A DNA stretch of 39,779 nt from Bacteroidales bacterium (GCA_024762915.1 JANTGL010000001.1:1-39779); one strand, 5' to 3'; shown: positions 8,399 to 39,779, numbered from the stretch's first letter. Notes: a model not told the origin generated them from the sequence alone. A program made the numbers and translations.

Positions 8399-8402
8399 TA
8401 AA

Positions 8403-9527: not shown

Positions 9528-9596
9528 ATAATTTCATCAAATCTGTTTGACAGAAACTGAATTCAAATTAATTTTTTTAATTAAAATATAATAATT

Positions 9597-12887: not shown

Positions 12888-13026
12888 AATATTATCATAT
12901 GAAACACCCATTCTAAACTATTAACACCCAAGGGAATGACTAATGCAGTTTCATAAATAAACTTATTAATTAAAGCTCACATGCGGGTGTTCCTATGTGA
13001 CCTTTAAAATCAATAAAAATAGACAC

Positions 13027-14454: not shown

Positions 14455-14464
14455 TTTAACTGTT

Positions 14465-14526
14465 AATATTAAACTTTATAACTAATTCTGTTAATTAAAT
14501 TAGTTATAAAGTTTAATGTTTTTTTA
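14465..14526 (+). terminator. strong intrinsic terminator after the SusC/SusD genes
   Basis: A perfect 19-bp stem: ATTAAACTTTATAACTAAT (14468-14486) pairs with ATTAGTTATAAAGTTTAAT (14499-14517). The loop is 12 nt and a T7 run follows at 14519-14525. Confidence 0.8.
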
Positions 14527-14641
14527 ATAAATTCTTCCTGCCGGAAATTTTATTAAAACATTCACAAAGTTTACAAGCAGAGTCGAATTTGACAAATTTC
14601 CGTTTTAATATACGATATTTTCTTATCCGAGAATTTGATAA

Positions 14642-15700: not shown

Positions 15701-15714
15701 TTTAATTCGGAAAA

Positions 15715-17199
15715 ATGTATAAAACAATTCTTCTTATTATTTATTTTTGCTTTACCGTATCAACTGAATATGCACAAATAAGAAAATTAGAAAAAAGAAA
15801 ACATTCGGTAAATAAAACATTAAAACAAATAATTTCATATCCGGATTTTAAAAATGCCGACTTTGGTTTTATTGCAAAAGATATCAAAACAGGAGAGATT
15901 CTTGCATCTTATCATTCTGACAAATCATTTATGCCGGCATCAACACAAAAACTTTTTACGACGGCAACAGCCCTTGAAGTTTTAGATTCAAATTTCAAAT
16001 TTACGACATCACTTCAATATTCCGGCAGCATTGATACTGTTTCAGGGATATTATACGGAAATATTCTTATAAAAGGGGGCGGAGACCCGACACTCGGTTC
16101 AAAATATTTTGATTCGACAAAAGACAAACAATTTCTTAATGATTGGTTAAATGCAATAAAAAAACTCGGTATAGATTCTGTTGCGGGTGCTGTTGTTGCC
16201 GACGCATCGGTTTTTGATTATAATATAGTTCCGACAACTTGGTCTTGGAATAATATGGGGAATTATTATGGTGCCGGAGCTAACGGCCTTACGGTATTCG
16301 ATAATTATTATACCGTTTTTTTTAAAACTTCGAGTAAAATAGGAGAAATAACTGAACCGGTTCAAGTAATTCCTGATATTCCGAATTTAGTATTTGATAA
16401 TACTTCAATATCCGATTCAATAACTTATGACAATTCATATATTTTCGGAGCACCGTTTTCAAATCAACGGTATGTCAGAGGAGAACTTCCTGCAGGAAAA
16501 GCTAATTTCGGAGTGAAAGGTTCAATGCCTGACCCGGCTTATACAACGGCATATATTTTTGAAAAATATTTACAAAAGAACGGTATCGGAATAAAAAATA
16601 AAGCAACAACAATTCGCTTGTCTCAACAAAAATTTCCTGACAGAACTTTAATAACAAAAACCCGGTCTCCGAAACTGTCAGAAATTATAAAACAGACTAA
16701 TACACACAGTATCAATCTGTTTGCAGAACATTTATTAAAAGAAATCGGATTGAAATTATCCGGAAATACAATAACTGAAAAAGCTGTTGATGAAATTATT
16801 AAATTTTGGAAAGAAAAAAATGTTGATACTCAGGGGATGTTTCTTTATGACGGAAGCGGACTGTCAAGGCATGACAGTTTTACACCGTCTCAAATGGTTC
16901 AAATTTTAACATACATGAAAAACAACAGCAGAAATTTTTCGGATTTTTACAATTCATTACCGATTGCAGGAGAAACCGGAACAATGAAAAATATGTTTAA
17001 AAAGAGTATTGCAAAAGGGAAATTAAGAGCAAAAAGCGGAACGGTTGACAGAGTAAAAGCTTATGCCGGATATGTTACGTCTGTTTCGGGGCGTGAAATT
17101 GTTTTCTCAATGGTTGTAAACGATTTCAGTTGTTCATCCGGTGACGCAAAAAAGCAACTTGAAAAATTAATGAATGCTTTAGCAGAATTTGATAAATAA
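15715..17199 (+). CDS. dacB: D-alanyl-D-alanine carboxypeptidase/endopeptidase (PBP4, peptidase S13)
   Basis: 494 aa with a signal peptide. Motifs: SxxK (PASTQKLFT), SxN (HSINLFAE) and K[ST]G (AKSGTV). It starts 14 nt after ldcA. Confidence 0.9.
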   Translation: MYKTILLIIYFCFTVSTEYAQIRKLEKRKHSVNKTLKQIISYPDFKNADFGFIAKDIKTGEILASYHSDKSFMPASTQKLFTTATALEVLDSNFKFTTSLQYSGSIDTVSGILYGNILIKGGGDPTLGSKYFDSTKDKQFLNDWLNAIKKLGIDSVAGAVVADASVFDYNIVPTTWSWNNMGNYYGAGANGLTVFDNYYTVFFKTSSKIGEITEPVQVIPDIPNLVFDNTSISDSITYDNSYIFGAPFSNQRYVRGELPAGKANFGVKGSMPDPAYTTAYIFEKYLQKNGIGIKNKATTIRLSQQKFPDRTLITKTRSPKLSEIIKQTNTHSINLFAEHLLKEIGLKLSGNTITEKAVDEIIKFWKEKNVDTQGMFLYDGSGLSRHDSFTPSQMVQILTYMKNNSRNFSDFYNSLPIAGETGTMKNMFKKSIAKGKLRAKSGTVDRVKAYAGYVTSVSGREIVFSMVVNDFSCSSGDAKKQLEKLMNALAEFDK

Positions 17200-17225
17200 G
17201 AATGATTTATAAATAAAAAACAACT

Positions 17226-18704
17226 ATGACTGACTACGGATGGCTCTCGGTTTTACCGCCTGTTTTGGCAATTTTTTTAGCATTAAAAACCAAACAAGTT
17301 TATATCGCATTAATATTCGGAATCGGATTGGGATGGCTGATTATTAATGACTGGAATGTTATTGACGGAACCGTGTCAACCATCGAAGCTTTTGTTAATG
17401 TTTTTAAATCCGAAGGAAATACACGAACTATAATGTTCAGTGCATTAGTAGGTTCTTTGCTTATTTTTATTCAAAAATCGGGAGGTGTTGAAGGATTTAT
17501 GAAACGAATTACAAAGATTCTGCAAAAGTATGAAGCTAAACAAAGCGGCAGAAGTCGTGTTGTGGTTCAAATTTTTGCTTTACTGACAGGAATCTCTCTT
17601 TTTGTTGAAACCAGCATCAGTTCTTTAACGGTAGGAACACTTTACCGTCCGATTTTTGATAAATTGAAAATACCTCGTGAAAAATTGGCCTATATCGCCG
17701 ATTCTATTTCTGCACCTTCAGCTGTTTTAATTCCGTTTAACGCTTGGGGAGCTTTTATTATGGGCTTGTTATTAACTCAAGGCATTGACGAACCTTTTAC
17801 AACGCTTATGAAGGCAATAGGATACAATTTTTATCCCATTTTGACCTTGCTGATGGTATTTGTAATTATTGTAAGTAAAAAAGATTTCGGACCTATGCGT
17901 AAGGCAGAAATCAGAACTAAAGAAACCGGAAAAGTGCATGCCGATAATGCTCGACCGATGGTTTCGGACAGTATCACTTCAAGCAAAACAAAGGAAAATA
18001 TTAAACCGAAAGCTTTTAATATGGTTATTCCATTATTTACAATGGTCGGAATGATGCCTGCCATGTTGGCTTTTACCGGTTGGGAAAAAGTAGAAACTTT
18101 TACTTCTTTAGGAAATCATTTAAGACAAGCAATCGGGCAGGGTTCCGGTTCTGCAGCTGTTTTATATTCTGTTATAACGGCTTTATTTATTGCAATGATT
18201 CTTTACCGAAGTCAAAAAATTATGAAATCGCGAGAACTGATTGAAACAGCTCTGAAAGGTGTCAGCGGATTAATGCCTTTAGCTTTGTTAATGATGCTGG
18301 CGTTTGCCATAAGTGCCGTATGCAATGAATTAGGAACAGGTATTTATATTGCTAACCTCTCAAAAGATTGGCTCTCACCCGGATTATTACCTGCCGTAGT
18401 TTTTATGATTAGTGCTTTTATTGCTTTTTCGACAGGAACATCATGGGGAACATTTGCCATAATGATGTCAATAGCAATTCCGATGGCAGAAGTTCAAGAT
18501 GCCAATATTTATTTGGTAGTTGCCGCAACACTCGGCGGCGGTGTATTCGGTGATCATTGTTCACCGATTTCGGATACCACGATAATATCTTCAATGGCCT
18601 CGGCATCGGATCATATTGATCATGTAAAAACGCAATTACCTTATGCCTTATTTATCGGTATAATTACGGTATTATTATATTTAGTCCTTGGCTTGTTATT
18701 TTAA
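17226..18704 (+). CDS. NhaC-family (Na+/H+ antiporter-type) polytopic membrane transporter
   Basis: 492 aa with about 11-12 hydrophobic segments. The overall pattern is typical of the NhaC C-terminal family (e.g. GTSWGTFAIMM, GGVFGDHCSPISDTTI). It starts 26 nt after dacB. The substrate cannot be deduced from the sequence. Confidence 0.75.
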   Translation: MTDYGWLSVLPPVLAIFLALKTKQVYIALIFGIGLGWLIINDWNVIDGTVSTIEAFVNVFKSEGNTRTIMFSALVGSLLIFIQKSGGVEGFMKRITKILQKYEAKQSGRSRVVVQIFALLTGISLFVETSISSLTVGTLYRPIFDKLKIPREKLAYIADSISAPSAVLIPFNAWGAFIMGLLLTQGIDEPFTTLMKAIGYNFYPILTLLMVFVIIVSKKDFGPMRKAEIRTKETGKVHADNARPMVSDSITSSKTKENIKPKAFNMVIPLFTMVGMMPAMLAFTGWEKVETFTSLGNHLRQAIGQGSGSAAVLYSVITALFIAMILYRSQKIMKSRELIETALKGVSGLMPLALLMMLAFAISAVCNELGTGIYIANLSKDWLSPGLLPAVVFMISAFIAFSTGTSWGTFAIMMSIAIPMAEVQDANIYLVVAATLGGGVFGDHCSPISDTTIISSMASASDHIDHVKTQLPYALFIGIITVLLYLVLGLLF

Positions 18705-18848: not shown

Positions 18849-19808
18849 TTACATTCCTACACCCATTACCAATATATCATCAACTTGTTCTTCGTCTCCC
18901 TGCCAATCAATGAGAGTGTTCCTTAGGATATCACCTTGTTCTTTCATCGGTTTATTCTGAACGGATAGCAGGACTTCTTTCAAATGATTATATTTAAATT
19001 TTTTATTTCTCGGGCCTCCGAATTGGTCTGCATATCCGTCGGAAAAAATATATATTGAATCCCCTTTTTCAAGTTGCACCGTATGATTGGTATAAATATC
19101 AACAACCCCGTCAGTATTAACGCCTATCGGTAATTTGTCGGCTTTTATTTCAAATAATTCCCCTTTTTTTACATAATACAAGGGATTATACGCGCCTGCA
19201 TACATGACCTCTCGTTTTTTAAAATCAACGGTACAAACAGCTAAGTCCATACTGTCTTTTACGCCGCTTTCATCATGTGTTTGTCTTAATACATCATTGA
19301 CATATTCATCAAGAAATGATAATAATTCACCCGGATTATTAATCGTTTCATTTTGAATACCTTGAATCAATCCGTTAAATCCGATAACCGACATTAATGC
19401 CCCGGGTACCCCGTGTCCCGTACAATCTACTGCAGCAAATAATACTTTATCTTTAAATTCGGAAACAAAATAGAAATCACCGCTTACGACATCTTTAGGC
19501 ATATATAAAATAAAATGTTCGGGAAGAAGGTCGTTTACCAAATAATCCGGAGGAGAAATCGCTGTTTGAATTCTGTATGCATAGCGTATGCTGTCGAGTA
19601 AATCTTTCTTTTTTTCTTCAAGTTCTCTGTTTGTGAAATTTAACTCGTGTGTATGAAATTGTTTGAATAAATTTAATGCTTCTTTAAAATTTGAGTTTTC
19701 TTCATAAAATTCTGCTAAATGTTTTAAATTCAGAAGAATAATCTTTTCATTGTTTTCTTCTTGAGCTGATAATAATGCTTTTTTTAATTCTTGTTCTTTC
19801 TGTTCCAT
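18849..19808 (-). CDS. PP2C-family serine phosphatase (SpoIIE/RsbU-like), soluble
   Basis: 319 aa. A short N-terminal TPR-like/coiled-coil segment is followed by the PP2C core SGDFYF...AAVDCTGHGVPGALMS...DGYADQFG...DDILVMGV. It is closely similar to the C-terminus of the 26832..30134 protein. Confidence 0.85.
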   Translation of the reverse strand: MEQKEQELKKALLSAQEENNEKIILLNLKHLAEFYEENSNFKEALNLFKQFHTHELNFTNRELEEKKKDLLDSIRYAYRIQTAISPPDYLVNDLLPEHFILYMPKDVVSGDFYFVSEFKDKVLFAAVDCTGHGVPGALMSVIGFNGLIQGIQNETINNPGELLSFLDEYVNDVLRQTHDESGVKDSMDLAVCTVDFKKREVMYAGAYNPLYYVKKGELFEIKADKLPIGVNTDGVVDIYTNHTVQLEKGDSIYIFSDGYADQFGGPRNKKFKYNHLKEVLLSVQNKPMKEQGDILRNTLIDWQGDEEQVDDILVMGVGM

Positions 19809-21348: not shown

Positions 21349-21780
21349 ATGTTAATAGATTGGGAAAAGAAATTTGAAACAGGTATAAATCGTATTGATG
21401 AACAACATAAACAGCTTGTTGCTATTATCAATAAACTGCATGAAAACATTATAATCCAAAAAGACGGTTCATCAGTAAATGGTTTATTAATGGATTTGAA
21501 AATATATACGATAGATCATTTTACAACCGAGGAAAAAATGTTGAAAAAATATAAATATCCCGGTGAAGATGACCACATTAAAATTCATCAAAAATTTATT
21601 AATAAAATATCCGAAAATTTATATGATGTAAATTCTGCACCTTTAGCTCAAGGGTATCAATTAATTGAATTTTTAAAAGCTTGGTTGATGAATCATATTT
21701 TGATTCATGACATGGAATATGTTACACATTTTAAGAAACATCATACATTTTTAGCTGATATTCAAACAGATATTTTGTAA
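21349..21780 (+). CDS. hemerythrin-like metal-binding protein (bacteriohemerythrin)
   Basis: 143 aa. It has the W..KF.TGI..ID.QHK.L pattern at the N-terminus and His/Glu/Asp iron ligand positions (DHFTTEE, HIKIHQKF, NHILIHD). Confidence 0.85.
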   Translation: MLIDWEKKFETGINRIDEQHKQLVAIINKLHENIIIQKDGSSVNGLLMDLKIYTIDHFTTEEKMLKKYKYPGEDDHIKIHQKFINKISENLYDVNSAPLAQGYQLIEFLKAWLMNHILIHDMEYVTHFKKHHTFLADIQTDIL

Positions 21781-26831: not shown

Positions 26832-29800
26832 ATGATTATGAGATTGAAATACACTATTTTATTACGTTATTCTCTTTCCCTTTTGATTTTTATCTTTTCC
26901 GGCTTATCAATTTATGCACAAAAAGGCAGTCCGTTTATTACCAATTATAAATTAAAAAATAAATATAAACTTCATAATTGGTTTATTATACAAGATAAAG
27001 ATGAAATGATGTTTTTTGCCAATCAAAAAGGCGTTTTGAGTTTTGACGGTTCAGATTGGGATCTTATTGCAACACCTACAATGCCTTTAACAATGTATTC
27101 CGACACCACTGATCATAAAATTTATGCCGGATGTGTCAATGATGTCGGTTATATTGAAAGAGATACAACCGGAAGCTACGTGTATGTTTCAATTAAAAAA
27201 GCATCCGAGAATATCGGAAAAGTAATTGAAATCTCTTCATCAGAAAACAAACTTATTGTATTGTCAGAAAATTTTATAACATTTTTTAATACAGATGATT
27301 ATGAAGTTATAAAGCGAATTCCCAATCGAAAAGAAAAAGGGTTTTTAAAAAATATTATTTCTGTTTCAGATGAATTATTTCTGGTTACGGATAATAATAT
27401 TTTCTATAAATTAAAAGATGATTCGCTTAATCGTTTTAAGGTAAAGAATAAAAAAAACATCGGGAAAATATTATTTGATTTTCCGATAAGTAAAACAAGA
27501 TCGATAATCGGAACGGATGCAAATAAATTGTATTTTTTCGGCGGAAAATCCGTCTGGAGATTTAATATTCAAGATCAAAAATATTTGGATGAAAGTATTT
27601 TAACCGATGCTGTGTTATTGTCTGACAGAAAAATTGTATTGTCTACATTAATCGGAGGAATTTTAATTATTGATTCTAAAACAAGAAAAACAATAAAAAG
27701 TATTAATTATTCATCAGGATTACCCGATAATGAAATTTTTGCAATCGGAAAGGATGATAATAACGGCTTGTGGTTGTCTCACGGATTGGGAATAAGTCGT
27801 ATAGATTTTTCGATTCCCGTTAAATTTTATCATACTTATCCGGGTATTGAAGGGCGATTGTTGTCGGTAATCAATAATAATAATACCATTTATGTCGGAA
27901 CAAATAAGAATTTGTATTTTTTGGAAGAACTGGATGCTTACAAACGTGCCCAACTTATTGAAGCAAAGATTTATACTGTTTCAAAAACATTAAAAAACAA
28001 GAAAGAATTAAAAGCAAAAGAAGATGCAAAGAAGAAAGGATTATTTTCAGGACTTCACAAAAAAATAAAAGAATTTGTTTCACCTGATAATACAATCAGT
28101 TTAACCGAGAGCAAAAGAAACGCTTTAATTCGGAAACGAAAATTATTAGGATTGCAATCTGTCAGTCATTCTTATAATAAGATTGAAGGATTAGAAGACC
28201 GATGTAAACTTTTAGTTCCGTACGGAGATAAGCTGTTGGCAGGAGGGAATAACGGTCTGTATGAAGTTGCTGATAATAAGGCGGAACGGATAATTGAAGA
28301 TCAATACGTTAATAATATTATTCAAGCAAAAAATAATCCCGACTTGTTTTATGTTTGTACAAATAACGGATTATTTTTATTGGAATTTACTGAAGATGAC
28401 CGTATTATTACTCAAGTTGAAGATTTGAAAAAGAAGCATGTAAGTTCCGTATCGGAAAATGACACGGCTGTTTGGATAGGGACTGACGAAAATGTGTATT
28501 TGATTGATTTAAGAACAAATACAATAGCAAGTTATGAAATAGATAATAAGTATGCCGAAGCTTCAACTTTACAAGAATTCAATAATAATCTTTATGTTTT
28601 ATTACCGTCAGAAATTTTTTATTATGATGCGAAGCAAGATCGTTTTGTTGTTTTGTTGTCCGGAAATTTTTCCTATATTAAAAAACAAAAAGATGTTTTA
28701 TGGCTTAATAATAATGAAAAATGGTATTCGGCTATACAACCGAAAGATTATGATCGAGCGAATAATATATATTTGAATCTGTTTAATGATATTGAATATA
28801 TTTATGTCGATAAATTAAATGATACATGGGTAATTGATGATGATAACAATTTGTATAAAATTAACAATCTGAATATTACTCTTTATAATCCGGAACAAAA
28901 TGTGTTAATTAAAAATATAACAAATCAGAACGACAAGAAGTTTTCTTTAAATAACTTAACTTTAGCTTCGGATGAAAATTATCTGCGTATCCGGTTTTCT
29001 GCACCGTTTTTCCTAAAACAAGATGCAACGGAATATCAATATTTTTTAGAGGGTTTAATGAAAACTCGGTCCGTTTGGGGAAATTCTCCGGAAATTTCTT
29101 TTCCTTATGTCCCGCACGGCAATTATACATTACATGTAAAAGCTAAAAATATTCTCGGAAATATAAGTGAGGAAAAAAAGATTTCTTTTTCCGTTAAAGC
29201 ACCGTTTTGGGAGAAAGATTGGTTTTTAATCAGTTCTGCTTTGACGTTTTTCTTGTTAATAATTTTAATTGTTAAATTAAGAGAAAGAAAGCTTCAAAAG
29301 AATCAAAAAATATTGGAGCGAAAAATTCAAGAAAGAACAAAAACAATTGAAGAACAAAAAAATCAATTGGCACAAAAGAATAAAAGTATTAAAGAAAGTA
29401 TCGTATATGCCGGACGAATACAAAAAGCCGTTATGCCTTCGGACGAATTGATGGGGCAATTATTTAATGATTATTTTGTTTATTTTAAACCGAGAGATAT
29501 TGTAAGCGGAGACTTTTATTGGTTGAAAAAAATTGGCGATTATACGGTTTATGCCGCGGCTGATTGTACCGGACACGGTGTTCCCGGTGCGCTGTTGAGT
29601 ATGTTGGGGATTTCGTTTCTAAATGAAATCGTATCAAAAGCACGTTTCGATACACCTGATGAAATTCTTAACCGATTAAGGAAAAAAATTAAAAAATCCT
29701 TAAACCAATCAGGCAGTAATTTTGAATCAAAAGACGGAATGGATATTGCGCTTTGTATAATTGATCATGATTCTTTACAGCTTCAATTTGCCGGTGCTTA

Positions 29801-30134
29801 TAACCCGGTATATATTGTGCGGAAAGGAGAATTAACAGAAATAAAAGCAACACGAAATCCGATTGGTGCATTTATTAAAGAAAAACCGTTTGAATCAAAT
29901 GATTTTAATCTGGAAAGAGGTGATATATTATATACATTTTCTGACGGGTATTCAGATCAATTCGGAATGGATGAAAATCAAAAGTTTAATAAACGAAACT
30001 TTAAAAAACTTTTGGCAAAAATTTATGATAAACCGATGTCGGAACAAAAACAAATTCTTGATGATGTTTTTAAGAAATGGAAGGGAAATGTCGAACAAAC
30101 GGATGATATCATTATTCTTGGCGTCAGAATCTGA
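26832..30134 (+). CDS. membrane sensor phosphatase: periplasmic two-component-regulator-type beta-propeller plus Y_Y_Y domain, one TM helix, coiled coil, and a C-terminal PP2C/SpoIIE phosphatase
   Basis: 1100 aa. It has an N-terminal signal/anchor and repeated propeller-blade-like segments (..GLPDNEIFAIGKDDNNGLWLSHGLGISRID..). A Y_Y_Y-like domain follows (EYQYFLEGL...WGNSPEISFPYVPHGNYTLHVKAKN). The TM helix is FLISSALTFFLLIILIV, followed by a coiled coil. The PP2C core is SGDFYW...AADCTGHGVPGALLS...DGYSDQFG...DDIIILGV. Confidence 0.85.
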   Translation: MIMRLKYTILLRYSLSLLIFIFSGLSIYAQKGSPFITNYKLKNKYKLHNWFIIQDKDEMMFFANQKGVLSFDGSDWDLIATPTMPLTMYSDTTDHKIYAGCVNDVGYIERDTTGSYVYVSIKKASENIGKVIEISSSENKLIVLSENFITFFNTDDYEVIKRIPNRKEKGFLKNIISVSDELFLVTDNNIFYKLKDDSLNRFKVKNKKNIGKILFDFPISKTRSIIGTDANKLYFFGGKSVWRFNIQDQKYLDESILTDAVLLSDRKIVLSTLIGGILIIDSKTRKTIKSINYSSGLPDNEIFAIGKDDNNGLWLSHGLGISRIDFSIPVKFYHTYPGIEGRLLSVINNNNTIYVGTNKNLYFLEELDAYKRAQLIEAKIYTVSKTLKNKKELKAKEDAKKKGLFSGLHKKIKEFVSPDNTISLTESKRNALIRKRKLLGLQSVSHSYNKIEGLEDRCKLLVPYGDKLLAGGNNGLYEVADNKAERIIEDQYVNNIIQAKNNPDLFYVCTNNGLFLLEFTEDDRIITQVEDLKKKHVSSVSENDTAVWIGTDENVYLIDLRTNTIASYEIDNKYAEASTLQEFNNNLYVLLPSEIFYYDAKQDRFVVLLSGNFSYIKKQKDVLWLNNNEKWYSAIQPKDYDRANNIYLNLFNDIEYIYVDKLNDTWVIDDDNNLYKINNLNITLYNPEQNVLIKNITNQNDKKFSLNNLTLASDENYLRIRFSAPFFLKQDATEYQYFLEGLMKTRSVWGNSPEISFPYVPHGNYTLHVKAKNILGNISEEKKISFSVKAPFWEKDWFLISSALTFFLLIILIVKLRERKLQKNQKILERKIQERTKTIEEQKNQLAQKNKSIKESIVYAGRIQKAVMPSDELMGQLFNDYFVYFKPRDIVSGDFYWLKKIGDYTVYAAADCTGHGVPGALLSMLGISFLNEIVSKARFDTPDEILNRLRKKIKKSLNQSGSNFESKDGMDIALCIIDHDSLQLQFAGAYNPVYIVRKGELTEIKATRNPIGAFIKEKPFESNDFNLERGDILYTFSDGYSDQFGMDENQKFNKRNFKKLLAKIYDKPMSEQKQILDDVFKKWKGNVEQTDDIIILGVRI

Positions 30135-33075: not shown

Positions 33076-34086
33076 TTATTTTCTTCCTGATAAATTTTTC
33101 GGAATTCGTCCCATTTTTACAGTTTCAGATCGAAGTCTTCGCCCGACAATTTTTTCAACGGTATTTCCGATTTCTAATATTTTATCGATATCAATTCCTG
33201 TTTCAATACCCATTTCATCCAGCATAACAAGTAAATCTTCCGTTGAAACCAAACCAACCGCATTCGGATCTTTGTAATAATATTTGCCGGTTCCGGAAAC
33301 GGGAACACCGTCAACAAAATTAGCAGGTTGTCCGCCGATGCCTCCGATTGTGGATTCAAAACGTGTAATTCCGGCTTGTAAAGCTGCCAAAACATTCGCT
33401 AAACCCCAACCTCTTGTTGTATGAAAATGCGCAAGATGCAACGATGTATCAGGAAGCGCATCCAAAAGCATCGAATAATATTTATAAACTCTGTCGGGTG
33501 ATGCGGAACCGTCATGATCGGCATGTTCAATATCATCGGCACCGATATCCAACCATCTTTTTGTAAACGTAACGGCATCTTTCATTTCTGTCGGTCCTTC
33601 AATCGGACATCCCCAAATGGTACTTACGGTTCCGTTAACTTTGATACCGGCATCATGTGCTTTTTTAATGTATGCTTCACTCATTTTCCAATAGTCAGCA
33701 TGTGATAAACCGGAATTCTTGTATTGATGTGATTCACTGGTAGAAACCATCAGCAAAATTCTGTCGGGACCCCAACCTTCTTTTTTGGCTTGAATGGCAC
33801 GTTCGATGGCACGTTCTCTGATTGTAACGGCTGTTATTTCTACATCATCAAGTTTATCTTTTAATTTCTTACTGTTCCGGATGCTTTTCATTAAATTATC
33901 GGCATCTTTGAATTGCGGCATACCTTTGGGATTTCCGAAGTTCGTGACTTCAATTTTTTTAAATCCTGCAAGAATAAGTTGCTCGGATAACCAAAGTTTT
34001 GCTTCCGTATCAATAAACTTTTCTTCATGTTGAAATCCGTCTCTGACGGTAATATCTCCTAATTCTACTTTTTTGGGATATTGCAT
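33076..34086 (-). CDS. HMGL-like (DRE-TIM metallolyase / pyruvate carboxyltransferase family) protein, HMG-CoA-lyase-related
   Basis: The ATG at 34086 gives MQYPKKVELGDITVRDGFQHEE, with the DRE-TIM RDG.Q motif. The track start at 34131 is a TTG. Also present are FHTTRGWGLANVLAALQAG (metal His region), GGIGGQP and STEDLLVMLDEMGI. It diverges from canonical HMG-CoA lyase in the LGDTIG region (ADHDGSAS). Confidence 0.7.
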   Translation of the reverse strand: MQYPKKVELGDITVRDGFQHEEKFIDTEAKLWLSEQLILAGFKKIEVTNFGNPKGMPQFKDADNLMKSIRNSKKLKDKLDDVEITAVTIRERAIERAIQAKKEGWGPDRILLMVSTSESHQYKNSGLSHADYWKMSEAYIKKAHDAGIKVNGTVSTIWGCPIEGPTEMKDAVTFTKRWLDIGADDIEHADHDGSASPDRVYKYYSMLLDALPDTSLHLAHFHTTRGWGLANVLAALQAGITRFESTIGGIGGQPANFVDGVPVSGTGKYYYKDPNAVGLVSTEDLLVMLDEMGIETGIDIDKILEIGNTVEKIVGRRLRSETVKMGRIPKNLSGRK

Positions 34087-34102
34087 GGTATTATTATATT
34101 TG
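34072..34102 (+). promoter_or_regulatory. candidate promoter for the CheR-like/CheB-like/GAF/nadC operon
   Basis: TTTG (34072-34075), a 19-nt spacer, then TATATTTG (34095-34102). This is a full match to the Bacteroidota TTTG / TAnnTTTG consensus, about 67 nt upstream of the ATG at 34169. Confidence 0.4.
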
Positions 34103-34168
34103 TTATTAATTTTACGGTATTGAATTAACAAAGATAGTATTTTTTTGTAATCAGAATGTGTCTCTTTT

Positions 34169-34987
34169 ATGCTTGATTTAAAACTTTCTGTATCAGAAGT
34201 TAATCAAATTTATGCAGAATTAAATTCGGTATCCGGCTTTGATTTCGGTAATTATGCTTTTTCATTTAAAATGAGGAAAATAATTTTATTGATGCATAGT
34301 CTGAAAATTTTAACGGTTGAGGATTTGATTTTTCGTTTACAAAATTCACAACACATTGTTTCGGAATTTGTTAAATCGATGTTTGTTTCTTACTCAGAAA
34401 TGTTTCGAGATGCCGAAATATGGAATTATTTGCAAGAAAAGATTCTTTCAAAATTACTTTTAAAGAAAGAGGTGAAAATCCATATTCCGTATTGTGTAAC
34501 AGGTGAAGAATTATATTCGTTAATGCTTTTATTAGGATTGTATCAATCAACTCATGTATCGATTTTAGTTTCACATCCGCTTTCCGAAAATGAAGAAATA
34601 ATTAAAAATCGTATTTTTACACAGAAGGATTTAAAAGCATGTCAAAAAAATATAGAATTTCTTGATTTTATTAAGAATACAGAAGATATTTTTGTCGGAC
34701 ATACGAATCAGATGAGAATTAATCATTTTTTTCGCGGAGAATTAAATTTTGAACATTGTGATATTTTAAGCCAACAACATATTGCAGAATTTGATTTGGT
34801 TTTATTTCGTAACAGATTAATATACTACAATGAAGATTTACAAACCGAGGTTCTGAGAAAAATAAGCGGAAGCTTGAATAAAGGCGGATTACTTATAATC
34901 GGCGAAAAAGAAACATTAGGACAAATGTCCGGAAAATATAAAAAACTGAAGTCAAATTTATCCGTATATAAAAAGAAAATTTTTTAA
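34169..34987 (+). CDS. CheR-like SAM-dependent protein-glutamate methyltransferase homolog (divergent)
   Basis: 272 aa that aligns by eye with the whole length of CheR. The N-terminal helical domain is present, and SEMFRD corresponds to T.FFRE. VKIHIPYCVTGEELYSLMLLL corresponds to RVWSAAASTGEEPYS, FDLVLFRNRLIYYN to FDAIFCRNVMIYF, and GGLLIIGEKE to GLLFAGHSE. Confidence 0.7.
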   Translation: MLDLKLSVSEVNQIYAELNSVSGFDFGNYAFSFKMRKIILLMHSLKILTVEDLIFRLQNSQHIVSEFVKSMFVSYSEMFRDAEIWNYLQEKILSKLLLKKEVKIHIPYCVTGEELYSLMLLLGLYQSTHVSILVSHPLSENEEIIKNRIFTQKDLKACQKNIEFLDFIKNTEDIFVGHTNQMRINHFFRGELNFEHCDILSQQHIAEFDLVLFRNRLIYYNEDLQTEVLRKISGSLNKGGLLIIGEKETLGQMSGKYKKLKSNLSVYKKKIF

Positions 34988-35556
34988 TGCGACAAAAATA
35001 TATCATCATAGGCGGTTCTGCCGGCAGTTTTAAAATTGTTACGGAAATTTTGGAAGCCATTCCGAAACACTTTCCGTTTGCCGTTATATTAATTTTACAT
35101 CGTTTAAAACATATTAAAGAGGGTTTTACCGATGCCTTAAAAATTAAATCTTTATTACCTGTTTCAGAACCCTTTGATAAAGAAAAAATATTTCCCGGCA
35201 AAGTGTATATTGCTCCTGCAAATTATCATTTATATATTGAGCCGAATAATACATTTGCACTTTCTGCCGAGGAGGTCGTTAATCATTCCAGACCGTCAAT
35301 TGATGTAACACTCAGTTCCGCAGCATTTTCTTTAAAAGAAAAAATGACGGGAATTGTATTGTCGGGAGCTAATAACGACGGAGCTGCCGGATTGAGAGAT
35401 GTGATGAATTACGGCGGTACGGCGATTGTTCAAGATCCTGAAGATGCAGCTGTTCCGACCATGCCTGAAGCAGCATTAAAGATTTCGGGAACGAAAAATA
35501 TTTTATCTTCGCAGGAAATTATTGAATATATTAAAAATCTAAATTTTGAATTGTAA
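34987..35556 (+). CDS. CheB-like protein-glutamate methylesterase catalytic domain, no receiver domain
   Basis: 189 aa. Motifs: IIIGGSAGSFKIV (Ser nucleophile), ILILHRL (His), IYIAPANYHL, HSRPSIDV, VLSGANNDGAAG (Asp) and VPTMPEAAL. The start overlaps the CheR-like stop (TAATG at 34985-34989). Confidence 0.85.
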   Translation: MRQKYIIIGGSAGSFKIVTEILEAIPKHFPFAVILILHRLKHIKEGFTDALKIKSLLPVSEPFDKEKIFPGKVYIAPANYHLYIEPNNTFALSAEEVVNHSRPSIDVTLSSAAFSLKEKMTGIVLSGANNDGAAGLRDVMNYGGTAIVQDPEDAAVPTMPEAALKISGTKNILSSQEIIEYIKNLNFEL

Positions 35557-36290
35557 TGTCTAAAAATCTTGTCCGAAAAATAATTGCGACTGTTTTTTTT
35601 ATTTTATCTCTGTTTTTAATTTGGCAGTTATTTACCGTGAATCCTGAGTATCAGAATAATACTGAAATGACCATCAGGTTCGGAGCATTGTTTTTATCAA
35701 ATTTATTTTTATTTGTTTTAACATATACGTTTCAAACAGAAAAAATAATTGAAAAAGAAAAAGGAATCGTTCTGCAAAAAGAAAAACACTTTGATGATAT
35801 TGAAGAAGAAAAAACAGGTGATACAGAATTGAAAATTAACAGGATTATTTCAAACGTAAAAAATGTTTCATCCGACAAAAATTTCTTTGAAGAGTTGTTG
35901 AAAATTTTTTCTAAGGAATTTTATATTGTTCAGGGGCTGATTTATGTTAAGGGAAAAGATAAATTTAAAATGACTGCAAGCTATGCGATATACGGAAATA
36001 AAAAGATTAATGAATTTTCGGAAGGACAAGGAATTCCCGGGCAGGTTGCAAAGGATATGAAAATAAAGATAATCACGGATATACCCGAAGATTATATTAA
36101 TGTGGTTTCCGGACTGGGTGCTTGTTCTCCTCAAAATCTTCTTTTTATTCCGATTGTATCAGGGAATGAAACAATTGCTTTGATAGAAGCTACGGCATTT
36201 GATAAGTTCCCGGAGAATCTGGAATTATATTATAACGAATTAAATTCTGCGCTGGTAAAAAAAATAAAAAATCTAAAAAATGACGAATAA
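35556..36290 (+). CDS. membrane-anchored GAF-domain protein (2 TM helices, E/K-rich linker, GAF) with no output domain
   Basis: 244 aa. The TM helices are IIATVFFILSLFLIWQLF and FGALFLSNLFLFVLTYTF. The charged linker is EKIIEKEKGIVLQKEKHFDDIEEEKTGDTELK. The C-terminal ~140 aa has a GAF-like pattern (...GQGIPGQVAKDMK...LLFIPIVSGNETIALIEA). The start overlaps the CheB-like stop (TAATG at 35554-35558). Confidence 0.65.
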   Translation: MSKNLVRKIIATVFFILSLFLIWQLFTVNPEYQNNTEMTIRFGALFLSNLFLFVLTYTFQTEKIIEKEKGIVLQKEKHFDDIEEEKTGDTELKINRIISNVKNVSSDKNFFEELLKIFSKEFYIVQGLIYVKGKDKFKMTASYAIYGNKKINEFSEGQGIPGQVAKDMKIKIITDIPEDYINVVSGLGACSPQNLLFIPIVSGNETIALIEATAFDKFPENLELYYNELNSALVKKIKNLKNDE

Positions 36291-37122
36291 ATTGATTGAT
36301 CAATTAATTGATTTGGCAATTGCTGAAGATATCGGTGACGGAGACCATTCTTCACTGTCCTGTATTCCGGAAAACGAAACCGGAACGGTTCAACTACTGG
36401 TTAAAGAAGAAGGCATTTTAGCCGGTGTTGAAATTACAAAAGAAGTTATCAGAAAAATTGATCCGGAATTAAAAATTGAGGTGTTCCTGCAAGACGGAAC
36501 AAAAATAAACCCCGGGGATATTGCTTTTAAAATTTCGGGAAAAGTAATTTCTATTTTGCAAGCCGAACGTTTATTGCTTAATTTTATGCAACGAATGAGC
36601 GGTATTGCTACGCAAACGGCAAAATATGCTGAATTAATAAAAGATTTCCCGACTAAAGTTTTAGATACCAGAAAAACAACTCCCGGACTGCGACATATTG
36701 AAAAACTTGCCGTCGCAATTGGTGGCGGAACCAATCACAGAATGGGATTGTATGATATGGTGATGCTGAAAGATAATCATATTGATTTTGCCGGGGGTAT
36801 TGAAAAAGCAATCAATAAAGTTGTTGATTATTTAAAAACTCAAAATAAAGATATTAAAATTGAAGTTGAAGTACGTGATTTTGATGAATTAAACGAAGTG
36901 TTGAGAGTAGGGAAGGTGCATCGAATTATGCTGGATAATTTTTCTGTTGAGGACACTAAAATTGCCGTTGATATGATTGCGGGAGAATACGAAGTTGAAT
37001 CTTCCGGCGGAATAACCTTTGATACTTTAAGAAGCTATGCCGAATGCGGTGTTGATTTTATCTCGGTCGGTGCATTAACGCATCAGATTAAGAGTTTGGA
37101 TTTGAGCTTGAAAGCGATTTAG
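36280..37122 (+). CDS. nadC: nicotinate-nucleotide diphosphorylase (carboxylating), quinolinate phosphoribosyltransferase
   Basis: 280 aa. Motifs: AIAEDIGDGDH, AERLLLNFMQRMSGIAT, LDTRKTTPGLR, GGGTNHRMGLYD..MLKDNH and MLDNF. The ATG at 36280 lies 11 nt inside the preceding GAF ORF. Confidence 0.93.
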   Translation: MTNKLIDQLIDLAIAEDIGDGDHSSLSCIPENETGTVQLLVKEEGILAGVEITKEVIRKIDPELKIEVFLQDGTKINPGDIAFKISGKVISILQAERLLLNFMQRMSGIATQTAKYAELIKDFPTKVLDTRKTTPGLRHIEKLAVAIGGGTNHRMGLYDMVMLKDNHIDFAGGIEKAINKVVDYLKTQNKDIKIEVEVRDFDELNEVLRVGKVHRIMLDNFSVEDTKIAVDMIAGEYEVESSGGITFDTLRSYAECGVDFISVGALTHQIKSLDLSLKAI

Positions 37123-37125
37123 CAG

Positions 37126-37254
37126 TTAGGAGTCAGGGATTAGAAATTAGGTGTTAGTGGTTAGGAATTAGAAGAAAGAAGATTTATTTTTATAAAATAA
37201 TACGTTTTTTACTGTTTATATACTATTTCCTCGTTCCTAATTCCTTAGTTCTGA
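37126..37254. repeat. inverted arrays of TTAGGAA-like heptad repeats flanking an A/T-rich spacer (possible long terminator hairpin or protein-binding array)
   Basis: Seven to eight tandem heptads lie at 37126-37181: ttaggag tcaggga ttagaaa ttaggtg ttagtgg ttaggaa ttagaag aaagaag. Three to four lie in inverse orientation at 37227-37254: ttcctcg ttcctaa ttcctta gttctga. TTCCTAA is the exact reverse complement of TTAGGAA. Confidence 0.7.
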
Positions 37255-37297: not shown

Positions 37298-38686
37298 ATG
37301 AATTACGACATAATAATCATAGGAAGCGGGCCCGGCGGATATGTTGCGGCAATCAGAGCATCGCAACTGGGAATGAATGTAGCTGTTGTCGAACGGGCGG
37401 AAATAGGCGGTATTTGCCTTAATTGGGGCTGTATTCCTACAAAATCATTATTGAAAAGCGCACAAGTTTACGATTATATCAAACATTCCGAAAATTACGG
37501 TATAAATGTTGACGGATATAAAGCCGATTTTTCGAAAATCATAGAAAGAAGTCGCGGTATTGCCGAGCAGATGAGCAAAGGCGTACAATATCTTTTTAAG
37601 AAAAATAAAATAACGGTTTTGCAAGGTTTCGGAAAACTTGCCGGAAAAAATACGGTTGAAGTTAAAGATGCAGAAGGAAATATTGAAAAATACACTGCCG
37701 ATCATATTATTTTGGCAACCGGTTCTCGTTCCAAAGAATTACCGAATTTAAAACAAGACGGTAAAAAAATAATCGGTTATCGTGAAGCATTAACTTTGGA
37801 AAAGCAACCCGAAAGTATGATTGTTGTCGGTTCGGGAGCCATCGGAACGGAATTGGCATTTTTTTATAATTCAATCGGCACGCAAGTAACATTGGTTGAG
37901 TTTCTGCCGAATGTGTTACCGATTGAAGATGAGGATGTTTCAAAACAAATCGGGCGTTCCTTAAAAAAAGCAAAAATAAAAGTCATGGTGTCTTCATCGG
38001 TTGAAAAAGTTGATGTTGAAAATGATAAATGTATCGTTATAATTAACTCAAAAGGGAAAGAAGTTAAAGTTGAAACGGAAATTGTTTTATCGGCAGTCGG
38101 CGTTGTTTCGAATTTGGAAAATGTCGGTATTGAAGAAGCCGGTATCGAGCTTGAAAAAGGCAAAATTAAAGTTGATGATTTTTATCGAACCGATGTTGAA
38201 GGAGTTTATGCTATCGGTGATATTGTTCACGGGCAGGCATTGGCACATGTGGCATCGGCAGAAGGTATTTGCTGTGTAGAGAAAATTGCCGGTTTAAATC
38301 CCGAACCGATTGATTACGGCAAAGTTCCGGCTGCGGTTTATACGACACCCGAAGTTGCCTCGGTCGGTTTAACCGAAAAAGCTGCAGCAGAGAACGGTTA
38401 CGAAGTAAAAACAGGAAAATTTCCTTTTACGGCATCCGGAAAAGCAACGGCTGCCGGTAATCGCGACGGATTTATAAAATTAATTTTTGACGCAAAAACC
38501 GATAAATTAATCGGAGCACATTTTGTCGGATTAAACGTCAGCGAAATGATTGCCGAAGCCGTAGTATCATTAAAACTCGGAGCACAAGGACACGATTTAA
38601 TAAAATCAATCCATCCGCATCCGACAATGTCGGAAGCAATTATGGAAGCGGCTGCAGCGGCTTATGATGAGGTTATTCATATTTAA
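37298..38686 (+). CDS. lpdA: dihydrolipoyl dehydrogenase (E3 component)
   Basis: 462 aa. It has an FAD-binding GSGPGGY motif, the redox-active disulfide GGICLNWGCIPTK, the NAD-binding GSGAIGTE motif and the C-terminal interface motif HPHPTMSEA. Confidence 0.95.
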   Translation: MNYDIIIIGSGPGGYVAAIRASQLGMNVAVVERAEIGGICLNWGCIPTKSLLKSAQVYDYIKHSENYGINVDGYKADFSKIIERSRGIAEQMSKGVQYLFKKNKITVLQGFGKLAGKNTVEVKDAEGNIEKYTADHIILATGSRSKELPNLKQDGKKIIGYREALTLEKQPESMIVVGSGAIGTELAFFYNSIGTQVTLVEFLPNVLPIEDEDVSKQIGRSLKKAKIKVMVSSSVEKVDVENDKCIVIINSKGKEVKVETEIVLSAVGVVSNLENVGIEEAGIELEKGKIKVDDFYRTDVEGVYAIGDIVHGQALAHVASAEGICCVEKIAGLNPEPIDYGKVPAAVYTTPEVASVGLTEKAAAENGYEVKTGKFPFTASGKATAAGNRDGFIKLIFDAKTDKLIGAHFVGLNVSEMIAEAVVSLKLGAQGHDLIKSIHPHPTMSEAIMEAAAAAYDEVIHI

Positions 38687-39207: not shown

Positions 39208-39779
39208 CTACTTATACTTACTATAATTTACTTTCCTGCCGTTAAGAGCTTGAACGGGTCTGTAATTGTTATCCAAAATATTTGAAAATTTATCAATTTG
39301 TTCCTTAGATGCTTCTACAGGATTTTTAAATATAAACCAGCTTACAATTTCCGAACAAGGCGGTGTTGTTAATGAACCGCTATAATAATAGAAAGACTTG
39401 TTTTCAGGAAATAATTTTAATAAATCAATCATTTCGTTTGCTTTATATTCACCTTTTTGTGTCGGAAATTTATCTAAATATTTTTTAAATAAATCATTCT
39501 CTTTTCCTTCTTTAAACATAACAGCCAGAACGGCAAAATCAGTATCAGAATACTTATGTACAAAGTGTACTTCTAAAGGAAAATGTTTACCGTCAATAGT
39601 GTGTTCACTTAATGCATGGTAATGGAACTGTATAAGTTTGTAATCTTTACCGTTTAAATTCACCGTGTTTTCTCCGTCAACATTAAATTGTAAAGTATGA
39701 GAATTGTTAATAATGTTTACTTTAGACTTGCCGTAGTTGAACTTCGGGGCTTTCACATCATCTGATTTAACAAGGGTTT
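39208..39779 (-). CDS. alpha-class carbonic anhydrase (N-terminus outside the window)
   Basis: Motifs: QFHYHALSEHTIDGKHFPLEVHFVH (three zinc His), YYYSGSLTTPPCSE and NYRPVQALNGR. The frame stays open past the GTG at 39756 to the window edge (..TLVKSDDVKAPKF..), so the gene is 5'-truncated here. Confidence 0.9.
   Translation of the reverse strand, partial: TLVKSDDVKAPKFNYGKSKVNIINNSHTLQFNVDGENTVNLNGKDYKLIQFHYHALSEHTIDGKHFPLEVHFVHKYSDTDFAVLAVMFKEGKENDLFKKYLDKFPTQKGEYKANEMIDLLKLFPENKSFYYYSGSLTTPPCSEIVSWFIFKNPVEASKEQIDKFSNILDNNYRPVQALNGRKVNYSKYK

Follow-up and report, generated by a model that had tools for sequence, protein, structure and literature searches.

A receiver-less CheB and its putative membrane GAF partner in a three-gene cassette of a Bacteroidales bacterium

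To our knowledge, the only established substrates of CheR and CheB are MCP-type receptors inside CheA/CheW arrays. In a stretch of 39,779 nt from a Bacteroidales bacterium, the whole of which is called the window here, genes for a CheR-like and a CheB protein are followed by a gene for a small membrane protein with a GAF domain (memGAF) and by nadC (Table 1). The 33 ORFs in these 39.8 kb that reach 120 aa were all scanned with Pfam, which confirmed that domains of the MCPsignal, CheA, CheW and receiver families are missing from each of them. A sequence-only reading had proposed a stand-alone reversible glutamate-methylation switch, with memGAF as substrate or sensor and nadC as a possible metabolic readout. 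The gene structure on which it was built is correct: TAATG stop/start overlaps at 34985-34989 and 35554-35558 join the three ORFs, and the nadC ATG lies 11 nt inside the memGAF ORF, as can be read directly in the sequence. Pfam recovered PF01739 and PF01339, as well as GAF_2 at 24.4 bits, which is under the cut-off of 28.6 that is exceeded by the memGAF orthologues.

Table 1. Positions of the features of the window discussed in the text
Feature	Coordinates	Strand	Length	Remark
Small SpoIIE (PP2C) protein	18849-19808	-	319 aa	
Y_Y_Y + SpoIIE (PP2C) sensor phosphatase	26832-30134	+	1100 aa	
Candidate promoter, Bacteroidetes type	34072-34102	+		in 82-nt spacer 5' of the CheR-like gene
CheR-like ORF	34169-34987	+	272 aa	
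Receiver-less CheB methylesterase/deamidase domain protein	34987-35556	+	189 aa	
memGAF, GAF protein with two TM helices	35556-36290	+	244 aa	
nadC, quinolinate phosphoribosyltransferase	36280-37122	+	280 aa	TIGR00078, 304.9 bits (cut-off 198.4)
lpdA, dihydrolipoyl dehydrogenase-like	37298-38686	+		syntenic housekeeping neighbour in class C

The cassette is not confined to the window. In 76 loci retrieved with a GAF-only pattern, the CheB gene is located immediately upstream of the memGAF gene, and the neighbourhood survey bore out that the three genes are kept as a unit far beyond the window (76 triads). The GAF-protein family comprises about 500 clusters at 50% identity. At the CheB-memGAF junction, an overlap of 1 to 8 nt or a zero gap was found in about 35 of the 51 loci of class A and in six of the ten of class C, to which the window belongs; gaps of 5-14 nt are present in class B. 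Neighbour-joining trees of CheB and memGAF contain the same clades. The coupling extends across all classes, which argues against memGAF as an incidental neighbour, and the view that CheB has in memGAF a specific partner, coupled to it in translation, is supported. All three ORFs are intact and of conserved length in all of the approximately 20 class C loci or proteins examined, and the genes are under purifying selection, with dN/dS values of 0.21 for the CheR-like gene, 0.07 for CheB and 0.18 for memGAF. The triad forms a signalling unit conserved across Bacteroidota that probably serves purposes other than motility. Cultured carriers are Chryseolinea lacunae, Fulvivirga imtechensis AK7, F. 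kasyanovii and Mangrovivirga halotolerans. Some of the class C MAGs, several in number, bear the label Chlorobi or Ignavibacteriales, and the Ignavibacteria include flagellated members; an ordinary MCP/CheA/CheW pathway elsewhere in the genome is conceivable.

Inspection of the neighbourhoods revealed a diverse picture. In class A (51 loci), CheR, CheB and memGAF are followed by a GAF-PAS-SpoIIE protein, a DUF6272 protein matching SiaB, and a SiaC-like protein matching SiaC of PDB 6KKO (E ~5e-15). Neither SiaB (DUF6272) nor SiaC is encoded in the window, which has from this set two SpoIIE genes only. The gene for the larger product lies 4 kb upstream of the triad on the same strand with three minus-strand genes in between; L012 and L096 have it in the corresponding position, and it is absent in L092 and L094. 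With phmmer, the smaller product matched the GAF-PAS-PP2C protein of class A in its phosphatase domain (E = 6e-62). To regard these two proteins as outputs acting in trans would be speculative. Neither gene is specifically linked to the cassette. A SiaC-family gene is located 7.6 kb from the triad in another class C locus, L016, and SpoIIE genes occur in L092 as well as in the window; partner-switch parts are present but unlinked in this clade.

In class B, a sister clade from rumen Bacteroidales, the triad is found at a distance of 2-4 kb from MCPs that contain 4HB, HAMP and MCPsignal domains, and those of L008, L023 and L028 end in a pentapeptide of the NFERF/EFERF type. A search seeded with a class B MCP again landed beside the triad. 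MCPs are abundant in Bacteroidales MAGs, and pentapeptide-bearing MCPs have been reported as frequent in Bacteroidetes (PMC7390727). To say that Bacteroidota lack MCPs would consequently be too strong. In eight further class C loci, no MCP, CheA, CheW or CheY was detected within about 10 kb. Across about 90 related loci, phmmer searches with CheW and CheY seeds of limited reach gave no match to CheW and receiver-domain matches in hybrid-kinase loci only. The GAF subtype of memGAF is also found inside HAMP-GAF hybrid kinases of Nitrospirae, Clostridiaceae and Parvicellaceae, three of seven of which adjoin genes for CheR and a receiver-less CheB.

The position of nadC directly after the triad is specific to class C (10 of 76 triads). 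In class B it is taken by ispD-tdk-yidD and in class A by the PP2C/SiaB/SiaC operon. The 11-nt overlap with memGAF is kept in eight of the ten class C loci, and nadC is therefore probably co-transcribed with the cassette. However, the whole block thyA-folA / DUF389-GH77-HMGL / triad-nadC-lpdA is syntenic across the clade, as expected of inherited gene order, which argues against a functional tie. A metabolic readout through nadC, whose neighbourhood to the cassette is confined to one clade, is not supported; nadC is a clade-specific neighbour outside the module, and gene order seems to have brought it there by accident. Concerning the ends of the putative transcription unit, the promoter candidate in front of the CheR-like gene is a weak sigma-70 match, with 9 of 12 positions, which is not above chance (18 matches at this stringency, 15.9 expected in shuffles). 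It does fit the Bacteroidetes promoter pattern (-33 TTTG, 19 nt, -7 TAnnTTTG), with TTTG at 34072-34075, a 19-nt spacer, and TATATTTG at 34095-34102. The pair is present at -97/-74 in L096 and L092, as in the window, and is not kept in the other class C loci. The structured repeat region 3' of nadC was found as described, with two 27-nt direct repeats and one inverted partner; no intrinsic terminator was detected in it.

Of the two enzymes, CheB is well preserved. The match to PF01339 (CheB_methylest, 159 bits) covers residues 6-182 of 189 and hence the entire protein, so that the N-terminal receiver domain is absent; NCBIfam models for full-length CheB gave 133 against a cut-off of 342. In comparisons with the structures 1A2O, 1CHD and 3SFT, residues S11, H38 and D131 align to S164, H190 and D286 of 1A2O. 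No exchange in this Ser-His-Asp triad occurs among 72 distinct orthologues, and judged by these residues CheB looks like an active methylesterase/deamidase.

The SAM-binding domain of the CheR-like protein was recognized by PF01739 with 77.6 bits, above the gathering score of 27 and about half of the values obtained for canonical CheRs in related loci (127-145 bits). PF03705 (CheR_N) gave no Pfam match at E <= 1, but B. subtilis CheR can be aligned through its N-domain with residues 20-75. With 46 bits, the cut-off of the NCBIfam CheR equivalog (435) was not reached. Close relatives are named 'hypothetical protein' by NCBI. Alignment to B. subtilis CheR (5FTW) showed IPYCVTGEELYS at motif I in place of the canonical SAACSTGEEPYT, and VSHP at the ATD position, by which the Asp is replaced. 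The conserved SAM-site residues, defined by the motif I pattern (A/G)C(S/A)(T/S)GEE(P/A)YS and the ATD Asp, are accordingly incomplete, while the GEE, FRD and FRNxLIYY motifs are retained. All 15 class C CheR homologues lack the Asp, and 45 single-copy CheRs contain it. In loci with two CheR genes, a canonical CheR is found beside the divergent one: the copy adjacent to CheB is devoid of the Asp in 18 of 18 cases, and the distal copy has it in 20 of 22. The window clade keeps the divergent copy only. The ATD Asp is the acidic residue that ends beta-2 and, as in class I methyltransferases and the Salmonella CheR structure, binds the ribose hydroxyls.

By its sequence, the CheR-like protein is a divergent CheR-family paralogue with a degenerate motif I and without the conserved SAM-site Asp, and its activity has presumably been lost. 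Since reversible methylation depends on CheR activity and no canonical CheR stands alongside, a complete switch in this clade is doubtful, and the stand-alone glutamate-methylation switch is weakened as an explanation. On the other hand, retention of GEE, FRD and RNxLIY together with purifying selection indicates that SAM may still be bound, in which case a complete switch could exist.

In memGAF, a helix at residues 3-27 represents TM1, and TM2 (about 42-60) runs on as one long helix to residue 102. The cytoplasmic GAF domain comprises residues 110-242. Its fold is supported by the scores of the orthologues, by the AlphaFold model (pLDDT 81), and by Foldseek, whose best matches are the GAF domains 4G3V, 3CI6, 3TRC and 3RFB (probability 1.0). 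The loop PExYIxVVSGLG (177-188) is invariant and predicted to be flexible, and memGAF carries a special GAF subtype with a PExYIxVSGxG loop. Pfam finds no output domain in memGAF, and every invariant residue is located within the GAF core. The Glu/Lys-rich linker is unlikely to be the substrate it was thought to be, because only its composition is conserved: it has no conserved Glu or Gln, no site alternating between E and Q among orthologues, and no methylation motif of the MCP type. The MCP consensus [ASTG][ASTG]xx[EQ][EQ]xx[ASTG][ASTG] is missing in memGAF of the window and present in one of 75 memGAFs overall. It was found in none of 39 GAF-PAS proteins, and 56 PP2C proteins contained three matches, which are not conserved. 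Three of seven neighbouring MCP sequences, from the class B loci L018, L019 and L028, have four motifs each.

We tentatively consider the cassette a receptor-modification module for non-chemotaxis signalling in which memGAF is the dedicated partner of CheB. With equal reserve, it might be taken as a pared-down form of a conserved Bacteroidota/FCB module, neither a chemotaxis operon nor a device for NAD metabolism. Through the stop/start overlap, memGAF and CheB would be made in equal amounts. In a presumed physical complex with CheB, memGAF would tether CheB and the CheR-like protein at the membrane, and its GAF domain may supply regulatory input, as the receiver domain does in chemotaxis CheB. 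The complex would then edit Glu/Gln side chains on a separate receptor containing HAMP, thereby resetting receptor output. In most relatives, the likely candidate for this putative substrate is the dCache/HAMP-GAF-PAS-PP2C phosphatase next to the triad, from a partner switch of the SiaA/SiaB/SiaC type; in rumen Bacteroidales, it is the adjacent MCP. In the window clade, the receptor and any canonical CheR would not be linked to the cassette, which would have settled upstream of nadC-lpdA, probably co-transcribed and with no functional tie. In hybrid-kinase loci, the presumed receptor itself contains the GAF subtype, so that a GAF protein acting as substrate fits at least as well as one that regulates CheB.

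The latter point leads to the alternative, in essence that of the sequence-only reading, that the CheR-like protein and CheB act on memGAF itself, which as a non-MCP protein would accept methyl groups or be deamidated in a stand-alone switch and, once modified, would signal by contact with other membrane sensors. Strict co-occurrence and translational coupling with CheB are in line with it, as are hybrid kinases with the embedded GAF subtype that are flanked by CheR and CheB and would be natural substrates, the long Glu/Lys-rich cytoplasmic helix (35-102), and the invariant flexible loop of surface type beside an invariant E211/Q163 core. Yet the linker offers no conserved or alternating Glu/Gln, the MCP consensus is absent from all but one of 75 memGAFs, the CheR-like protein has no ribose-binding Asp, and memGAF has no output domain; we regard this alternative as rather unlikely. 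Somewhat less likely still, the enzymes could be ordinary adaptation enzymes of an MCP pathway encoded elsewhere, memGAF being an accessory or unrelated neighbour. Class B MCPs near the triad, three with four methylation sites and three with the pentapeptide, and the abundance of MCPs in Bacteroidales would agree with such a pathway, but not the lack of MCP, CheA, CheW and CheY in the window and around the eight class C loci, the results of the CheW and receiver searches within their limited reach, and the coupling of CheB to memGAF in all classes.

Two further explanations have little in their favour. Regulation of NAD biosynthesis or redox metabolism, with nadC and lpdA as readout, is very improbable: co-transcription is implied by the memGAF-nadC overlap, but other genes occupy the position of nadC outside class C, and the complete block is inherited together. 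A cassette in decay that no longer has a function is hardly credible, despite the degenerate motifs of the CheR-like protein and the loss from this clade of both the canonical CheR and the adjacent receptor. Decay is disfavoured by the intact ORFs, the low dN/dS values, and the invariant catalytic and core residues.

Comparison with known systems places the cassette between several of them. The enzyme folds are homologous to those of CheR/CheB-MCP adaptation in chemotaxis of E. coli/Salmonella and B. subtilis (1AF7, 5FTW, 1A2O, 3SFT). The Ser-His-Asp triad of CheB is kept and the two-domain layout of the CheR-like protein appears to be, whereas the receiver domain of CheB, the conserved Asp and an intact motif I of CheR, and nearby MCP, CheA, CheW or CheY are not, and an obligatory membrane GAF partner is absent from chemotaxis systems. 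The hybrid-kinase clusters of Nitrospirae (L072), Clostridiaceae (L076) and Parvicellaceae (L079) combine a hybrid histidine kinase, CheR, receiver-less CheB and a response regulator. They share the GAF subtype (PExYIxIVSG), located directly after HAMP within a kinase whose sensor domain is CHASE3 or 4HB and which also has receiver domains. Their CheR is canonical; in the window, the GAF domain is free-standing and accompanied by two TM helices. In Bacteroidota, fusions of CheB and CheR with a PAS-histidine kinase are annotated. They likewise place CheB and CheR domains outside a CheA/CheW pathway in non-flagellated bacteria, but the window has separate genes and a separate GAF partner. SiaABCD of Pseudomonas aeruginosa consists of the PP2C SiaA, the kinase SiaB, the phosphoprotein SiaC (PMC8457831, bioRxiv 10.1101/674879, PDB 6KKO) and the cyclase SiaD. 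The 51 class A loci resemble it in having a sensor PP2C, a SiaB-like and a SiaC-family protein directly after the triad, but contain a TerB-ABC transporter instead of SiaD; the Pseudomonas system is without CheR, CheB and memGAF, and the window without SiaB and SiaC. Wsp, a chemosensory pathway with an alternative cellular function, includes the CheR-TPR protein WspC (PMC3447774). CheR/CheB-type modification tunes a non-motility output in Wsp-type pathways, as it would do here, but these keep MCP, CheW and CheA, none of which is in the window.

For the window itself the outcome is modest: the cassette is a trimmed family member, and its link to NAD synthesis is not meaningful. Throughout the large family, the receiver-less CheB always comes with one small membrane GAF protein; a degenerate CheR is often present as well, and a SiaABC-like phosphatase/kinase switch usually. 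It is conceivable, though doubtful at present, that pathways without CheA/CheW have gained adaptation in the style of chemotaxis (memory) by recruiting CheR/CheB-type modification through a dedicated GAF subtype, the main case being non-flagellated Bacteroidota with their PP2C/SiaB/SiaC Ser/Thr partner switch. Modification would then be directed at non-MCP proteins without a classical methylation motif, and the window would represent the minimal form, with an active CheB, a pseudo-methyltransferase as adaptor and a GAF anchor. As cultured carriers exist, the question of non-MCP targets is directly testable. If the enzymes do act on such targets, reversible glutamate modification would extend further than is known, a way of adding adaptation to Ser/Thr partner-switch signalling would become apparent, and the 'chemotaxis' genes routinely annotated in non-motile Bacteroidota would have a function.

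The CheR-like, CheB-like and GAF ORFs and nadC run in the same direction, and the first three were found coupled through shared TAATG motifs as the sequence-only reading had described, with the nadC ATG located 11 nt ahead of the GAF stop codon (see table). Pfam searches bore out the CheR and CheB assignments. The CheR-like ORF scored 77.6 bits against PF01739, and CheB_methylest matched the CheB-like protein with 159 bits across all 189 aa, which identifies it as a CheB without receiver domain. The GAF assignment was not reached by profile (GAF_2, 24.4 bits, under the cut-off of 28.6), but the AlphaFold model of the protein matched solved GAF domains in Foldseek searches. The identity of nadC is backed by NCBIfam, and the three proteins preceding it are named by NCBI 'hypothetical protein', 'chemotaxis protein CheB' and 'GAF domain-containing protein'. 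Scans of the window (GC content ~33%) for a sigma-70 promoter, which had been suggested in front of these genes, and for a terminator gave nothing beyond chance level, and no intrinsic terminator was detected in the nadC-lpdA spacer. Translation of the HMGL-like ORF probably begins downstream of the TTG listed as its start, judged from homologues of 336 aa, which fit an ATG at 34086; this start would leave a spacer of 82 nt ahead of the CheR-like gene.

Features in the window and in related loci (L-numbers) of other genomes
Feature	Sequence	Position	Strand	Remarks
SusC/SusD pair with flanking genes	window	7187-18704		flanks: NlpC/P60+SH3 peptidase, MR_MLE-type epimerase, LD-carboxypeptidase (S66), S13 D-Ala-D-Ala carboxypeptidase, Na+/H+ antiporter-family transporter
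SusC/SusD pair	window	9597-14454
Short SpoIIE/PP2C	window	18849-19808		319 aa
Hemerythrin-domain protein	window	21349-21780	+
Y_Y_Y sensor SpoIIE/PP2C	window	26832-30134		1100 aa
HMGL-like ORF	window	33076-34131	-	351 aa, TTG start as listed
CheR-like, CheB-like, GAF and nadC ORFs	window	34169-37122		four ORFs
TAATG, CheR-like/CheB-like	window	34985-34989
TAATG, CheB-like/GAF	window	35554-35558
nadC ATG	window	36280
nadC-lpdA spacer	window	37119-37254		two 27-nt direct repeats (37119-37145, 37147-37173; 78% identical), inverted partner (37236-37254)
Alpha (eukaryotic-type) carbonic anhydrase	window	39208-39756	-
Rumen Bacteroidales MCP adjoining triad	L008	2931-5096
Rumen Bacteroidales MCP adjoining triad	L023
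Rumen Bacteroidales MCP adjoining triad	L028	13914-16055
Rumen Bacteroidales MCP adjoining triad	L098	10001-12109
SiaC-family gene, class A	L039	14919-15281
Conserved set 3' of SiaC, class A	L039	15395-19895		~1030-aa TerB + ABC-transporter fusion, ~300-aa and ~139-aa proteins
Stand-alone SiaC-family gene, class C	L016	14143-14538	-
Stand-alone SiaC-family gene, class B	L028	23-409	-

From its gene content, the region around the SusC/SusD pair looks like a peptidoglycan/muropeptide utilisation locus.

To find related loci, one genome per species was scanned with a pattern derived from the GAF protein alone, yielding 80 loci, and further ones were added by homologue look-ups; ORFs were called by a simple in-house procedure and labelled with phmmer seeds, of which those for CheW and CheY have limited reach. 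As the GAF motif chose the loci, its own frequency is not meaningful, but its association with CheB is. Co-conservation of the three genes was evident from 76 triads in three architectures, besides a fourth, kinase-type context. Class A (51 loci) occurs in Cytophagales (for example Chryseolinea, Fulvivirga and Cyclobacteriaceae) and some Bacteroidales, with the order [GAF-PAS sensor], CheR (or CheR and CheR*, a divergent paralogue), CheB, memGAF (the membrane GAF protein), [dCache/HAMP-GAF-PAS-SpoIIE], DUF6272, SiaC, TerB-ABC. Class B (13 loci, rumen/gut Bacteroidales) is arranged CheR, CheR*, CheB, memGAF, ispD, tdk, yidD. In class C, comprising the window and its relatives (10 loci, memGAF identity down to 39%), thyA-folA and, on the minus strand, DUF389-GH77-HMGL are followed by CheR*, CheB, memGAF, nadC and lpdA. 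Between thyA and DUF389, the window as well as L012 and L096 contain the 1100-aa SpoIIE gene, which L092 and L094 lack at this place. At seven kinase-type loci (Nitrospirae, Clostridiaceae, Parvicellaceae and others) a memGAF-type GAF domain is part of hybrid kinases; in three of them, genes for CheR, a CheB without receiver domain and a response regulator come after the kinase. Trees of CheB and memGAF, neighbour-joining distance trees with midpoint rooting and thus indicative only, contain identical clades, with class C as sister to class B. Near-identical CheB proteins are labelled as Bacteroidetes/Bacteroidales MAGs and some relatives as Chlorobi or Ignavibacteriales; the contig of one relative encodes a Por_Secre_tail protein. 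With the GC content and the SusC/SusD pair, this assigns the window to the FCB group and most likely to Bacteroidota. The triad constitutes a genuine functional unit in which CheB has the GAF protein, already linked to it from the sequence, as its specific partner. Candidates for natural CheB-memGAF fusions were discarded, the long ORFs of L022 and L024 being out-of-frame artefacts of ORF calling and the long memGAF family members P0228, P0231 and P0258 bearing unrelated extensions.

The position of nadC is occupied in other clades by unrelated housekeeping genes or a Sia-like operon, and its link to the triad is a gene order inherited inside one clade. Co-transcription of triad and nadC is plausible, but the metabolic readout through nadC that had been considered found no support.

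In class A, matches were obtained between the DUF6272 protein and SiaB and between the SiaC-like protein and SiaC (PDB 6KKO), a likeness to the SiaABC system of Pseudomonas. The SiaC-family proteins of Cytophagales (L039 and ~45 other class A loci) invariably end in PFEFKTY, of which the final five residues have the form xFxxY. This ending is similar to the pentapeptide by which MCPs bind CheR/CheB, and it may be a coincidence or a docking site. A set conserved 3' of SiaC in L039 and other class A loci, encoding a TerB-ABC fusion and two smaller proteins, comprises possible outputs of the Sia-like switch. Stand-alone SiaC-family genes in L016 and L028 have neither PP2C nor SiaB adjacent, and the triad is a few kb off.

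In CheB, S11, H38 and D131 align with the catalytic S164, H190 and D286 of Salmonella CheB, and these residues are invariant among 72 distinct orthologues. The CheR-like protein of the window could be aligned to B. subtilis CheR (5FTW) across both domains, with differences at two sites: motif I reads IPYCVTGEELYS in place of SAACSTGEEPYT, and VSHP stands where the ATD motif would provide an Asp, the residue that contacts the ribose of SAM in class I methyltransferases. This Asp is absent in all 15 close CheR* homologues. At loci with two CheR genes, every CheB-adjacent copy lacks it (18 of 18) and 20 of 22 distal copies have kept it; single-copy CheRs of Cytophagales retain it throughout (45/45). 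By this distribution the loss is a subfamily trait and not a one-off, and CheR* is the sole CheR form at the loci of the window clade. Since GEE, FRD and RNxLIYY are retained and dN/dS is 0.21 (CheB, 0.07; memGAF, 0.18), indicating purifying selection, CheR* is a functional protein, but whether it acts as a methyltransferase is doubtful.

For memGAF (244 aa), the AlphaFold model (pLDDT 81), uninformative on ligands and complexes, contains a helix 3-27 (TM1), a helix 35-102 holding TM2 and extending ~45 residues into the cytoplasm, and the GAF domain (110-242). Judged by its charge distribution, the protein probably has both termini in the cytoplasm. The family comprises ~500 clusters at 50% identity with E <= 1e-30, and nearly all of the 150 best members listed have 200-290 aa. 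Conservation, scored over 72 and later 229 members, placed all invariant residues in the GAF core (A144, G157, G162, Q163, Y180, S185, G186, G188, P199, E211); a flexible conformation is predicted for its signature loop PExYIxVVSGLG. Of the Glu/Lys-rich linker, on account of which memGAF had been proposed as substrate or sensor, only the composition is conserved (median ~38% charged), and the family alignment contains no conserved Glu/Gln in it. Just 1 of 75 memGAFs contains the MCP methylation consensus, which three of seven adjacent sister-clade MCP sequences carry four times each. Among 72 members, an E/Q site seemed to exist at residue 158, with Q in the window clade and E in most others, but it was dropped when it proved not conserved in 229.

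Scanning all window ORFs of at least 120 aa revealed no MCPsignal, CheA, CheW or receiver domain, and an xZxxZ scan of all called ORFs detected no C-terminal pentapeptide in a window protein. The reported lack of chemotaxis partners extends to the ~10 kb surroundings of eight further class C loci. At least six class B loci have an MCP with HAMP and MCPsignal domains at a distance of 2-4 kb from the triad, and hence such enzymes can neighbour genuine MCPs. In L008, L023 and L028 the MCP has an Asn/Asp-rich linker followed by a terminal NFERF or EFERF, and four consensus methylation sites, QE/QQ pairs included, are present in each MCP of L018, L019 and L028. The 10 kb around the rumen Bacteroidales MCPs listed in the table showed neither CheA nor CheW. 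A search seeded with class B MCPs returned other Bacteroidales MCPs alone; MCPs are common in Bacteroidales MAGs, as also reported previously (PMC7390727).

Full-text searches aimed at Bacteroidetes and partner-switching contexts yielded no description of this cassette; that on SiaC/DUF6272 yielded the Pseudomonas SiaABC papers and no text on DUF6272. The enzymes of the cassette belong to known families, and chemosensory systems with alternative functions are already known.

Gene structure, residue patterns and contexts were observed directly, and from them we infer interactions and substrates. The stand-alone methylation switch initially proposed is retained as far as the triad is a unit with a CheB-specific GAF partner. 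In the main rival explanation the GAF-bearing protein itself is the substrate; the hybrid-kinase loci favour it, but with no conserved acceptor site in that protein and a degenerate CheR* it appears rather unlikely. Tentatively preferred, as a whole somewhat short of probable, is a receptor-editing complex. Here memGAF would anchor the receiver-less CheB and CheR* at the membrane and supply their regulatory input, and the three proteins together would edit Glu/Gln on a separate HAMP-containing receptor. The two SpoIIE genes of the window, like the SiaC gene of L016, are near the cassette without specific linkage to it. In the window clade the edited receptor would be unlinked to the cassette; in class B its place would be taken by an MCP, and in most relatives by the PP2C sensor belonging to a SiaABC-like switch.
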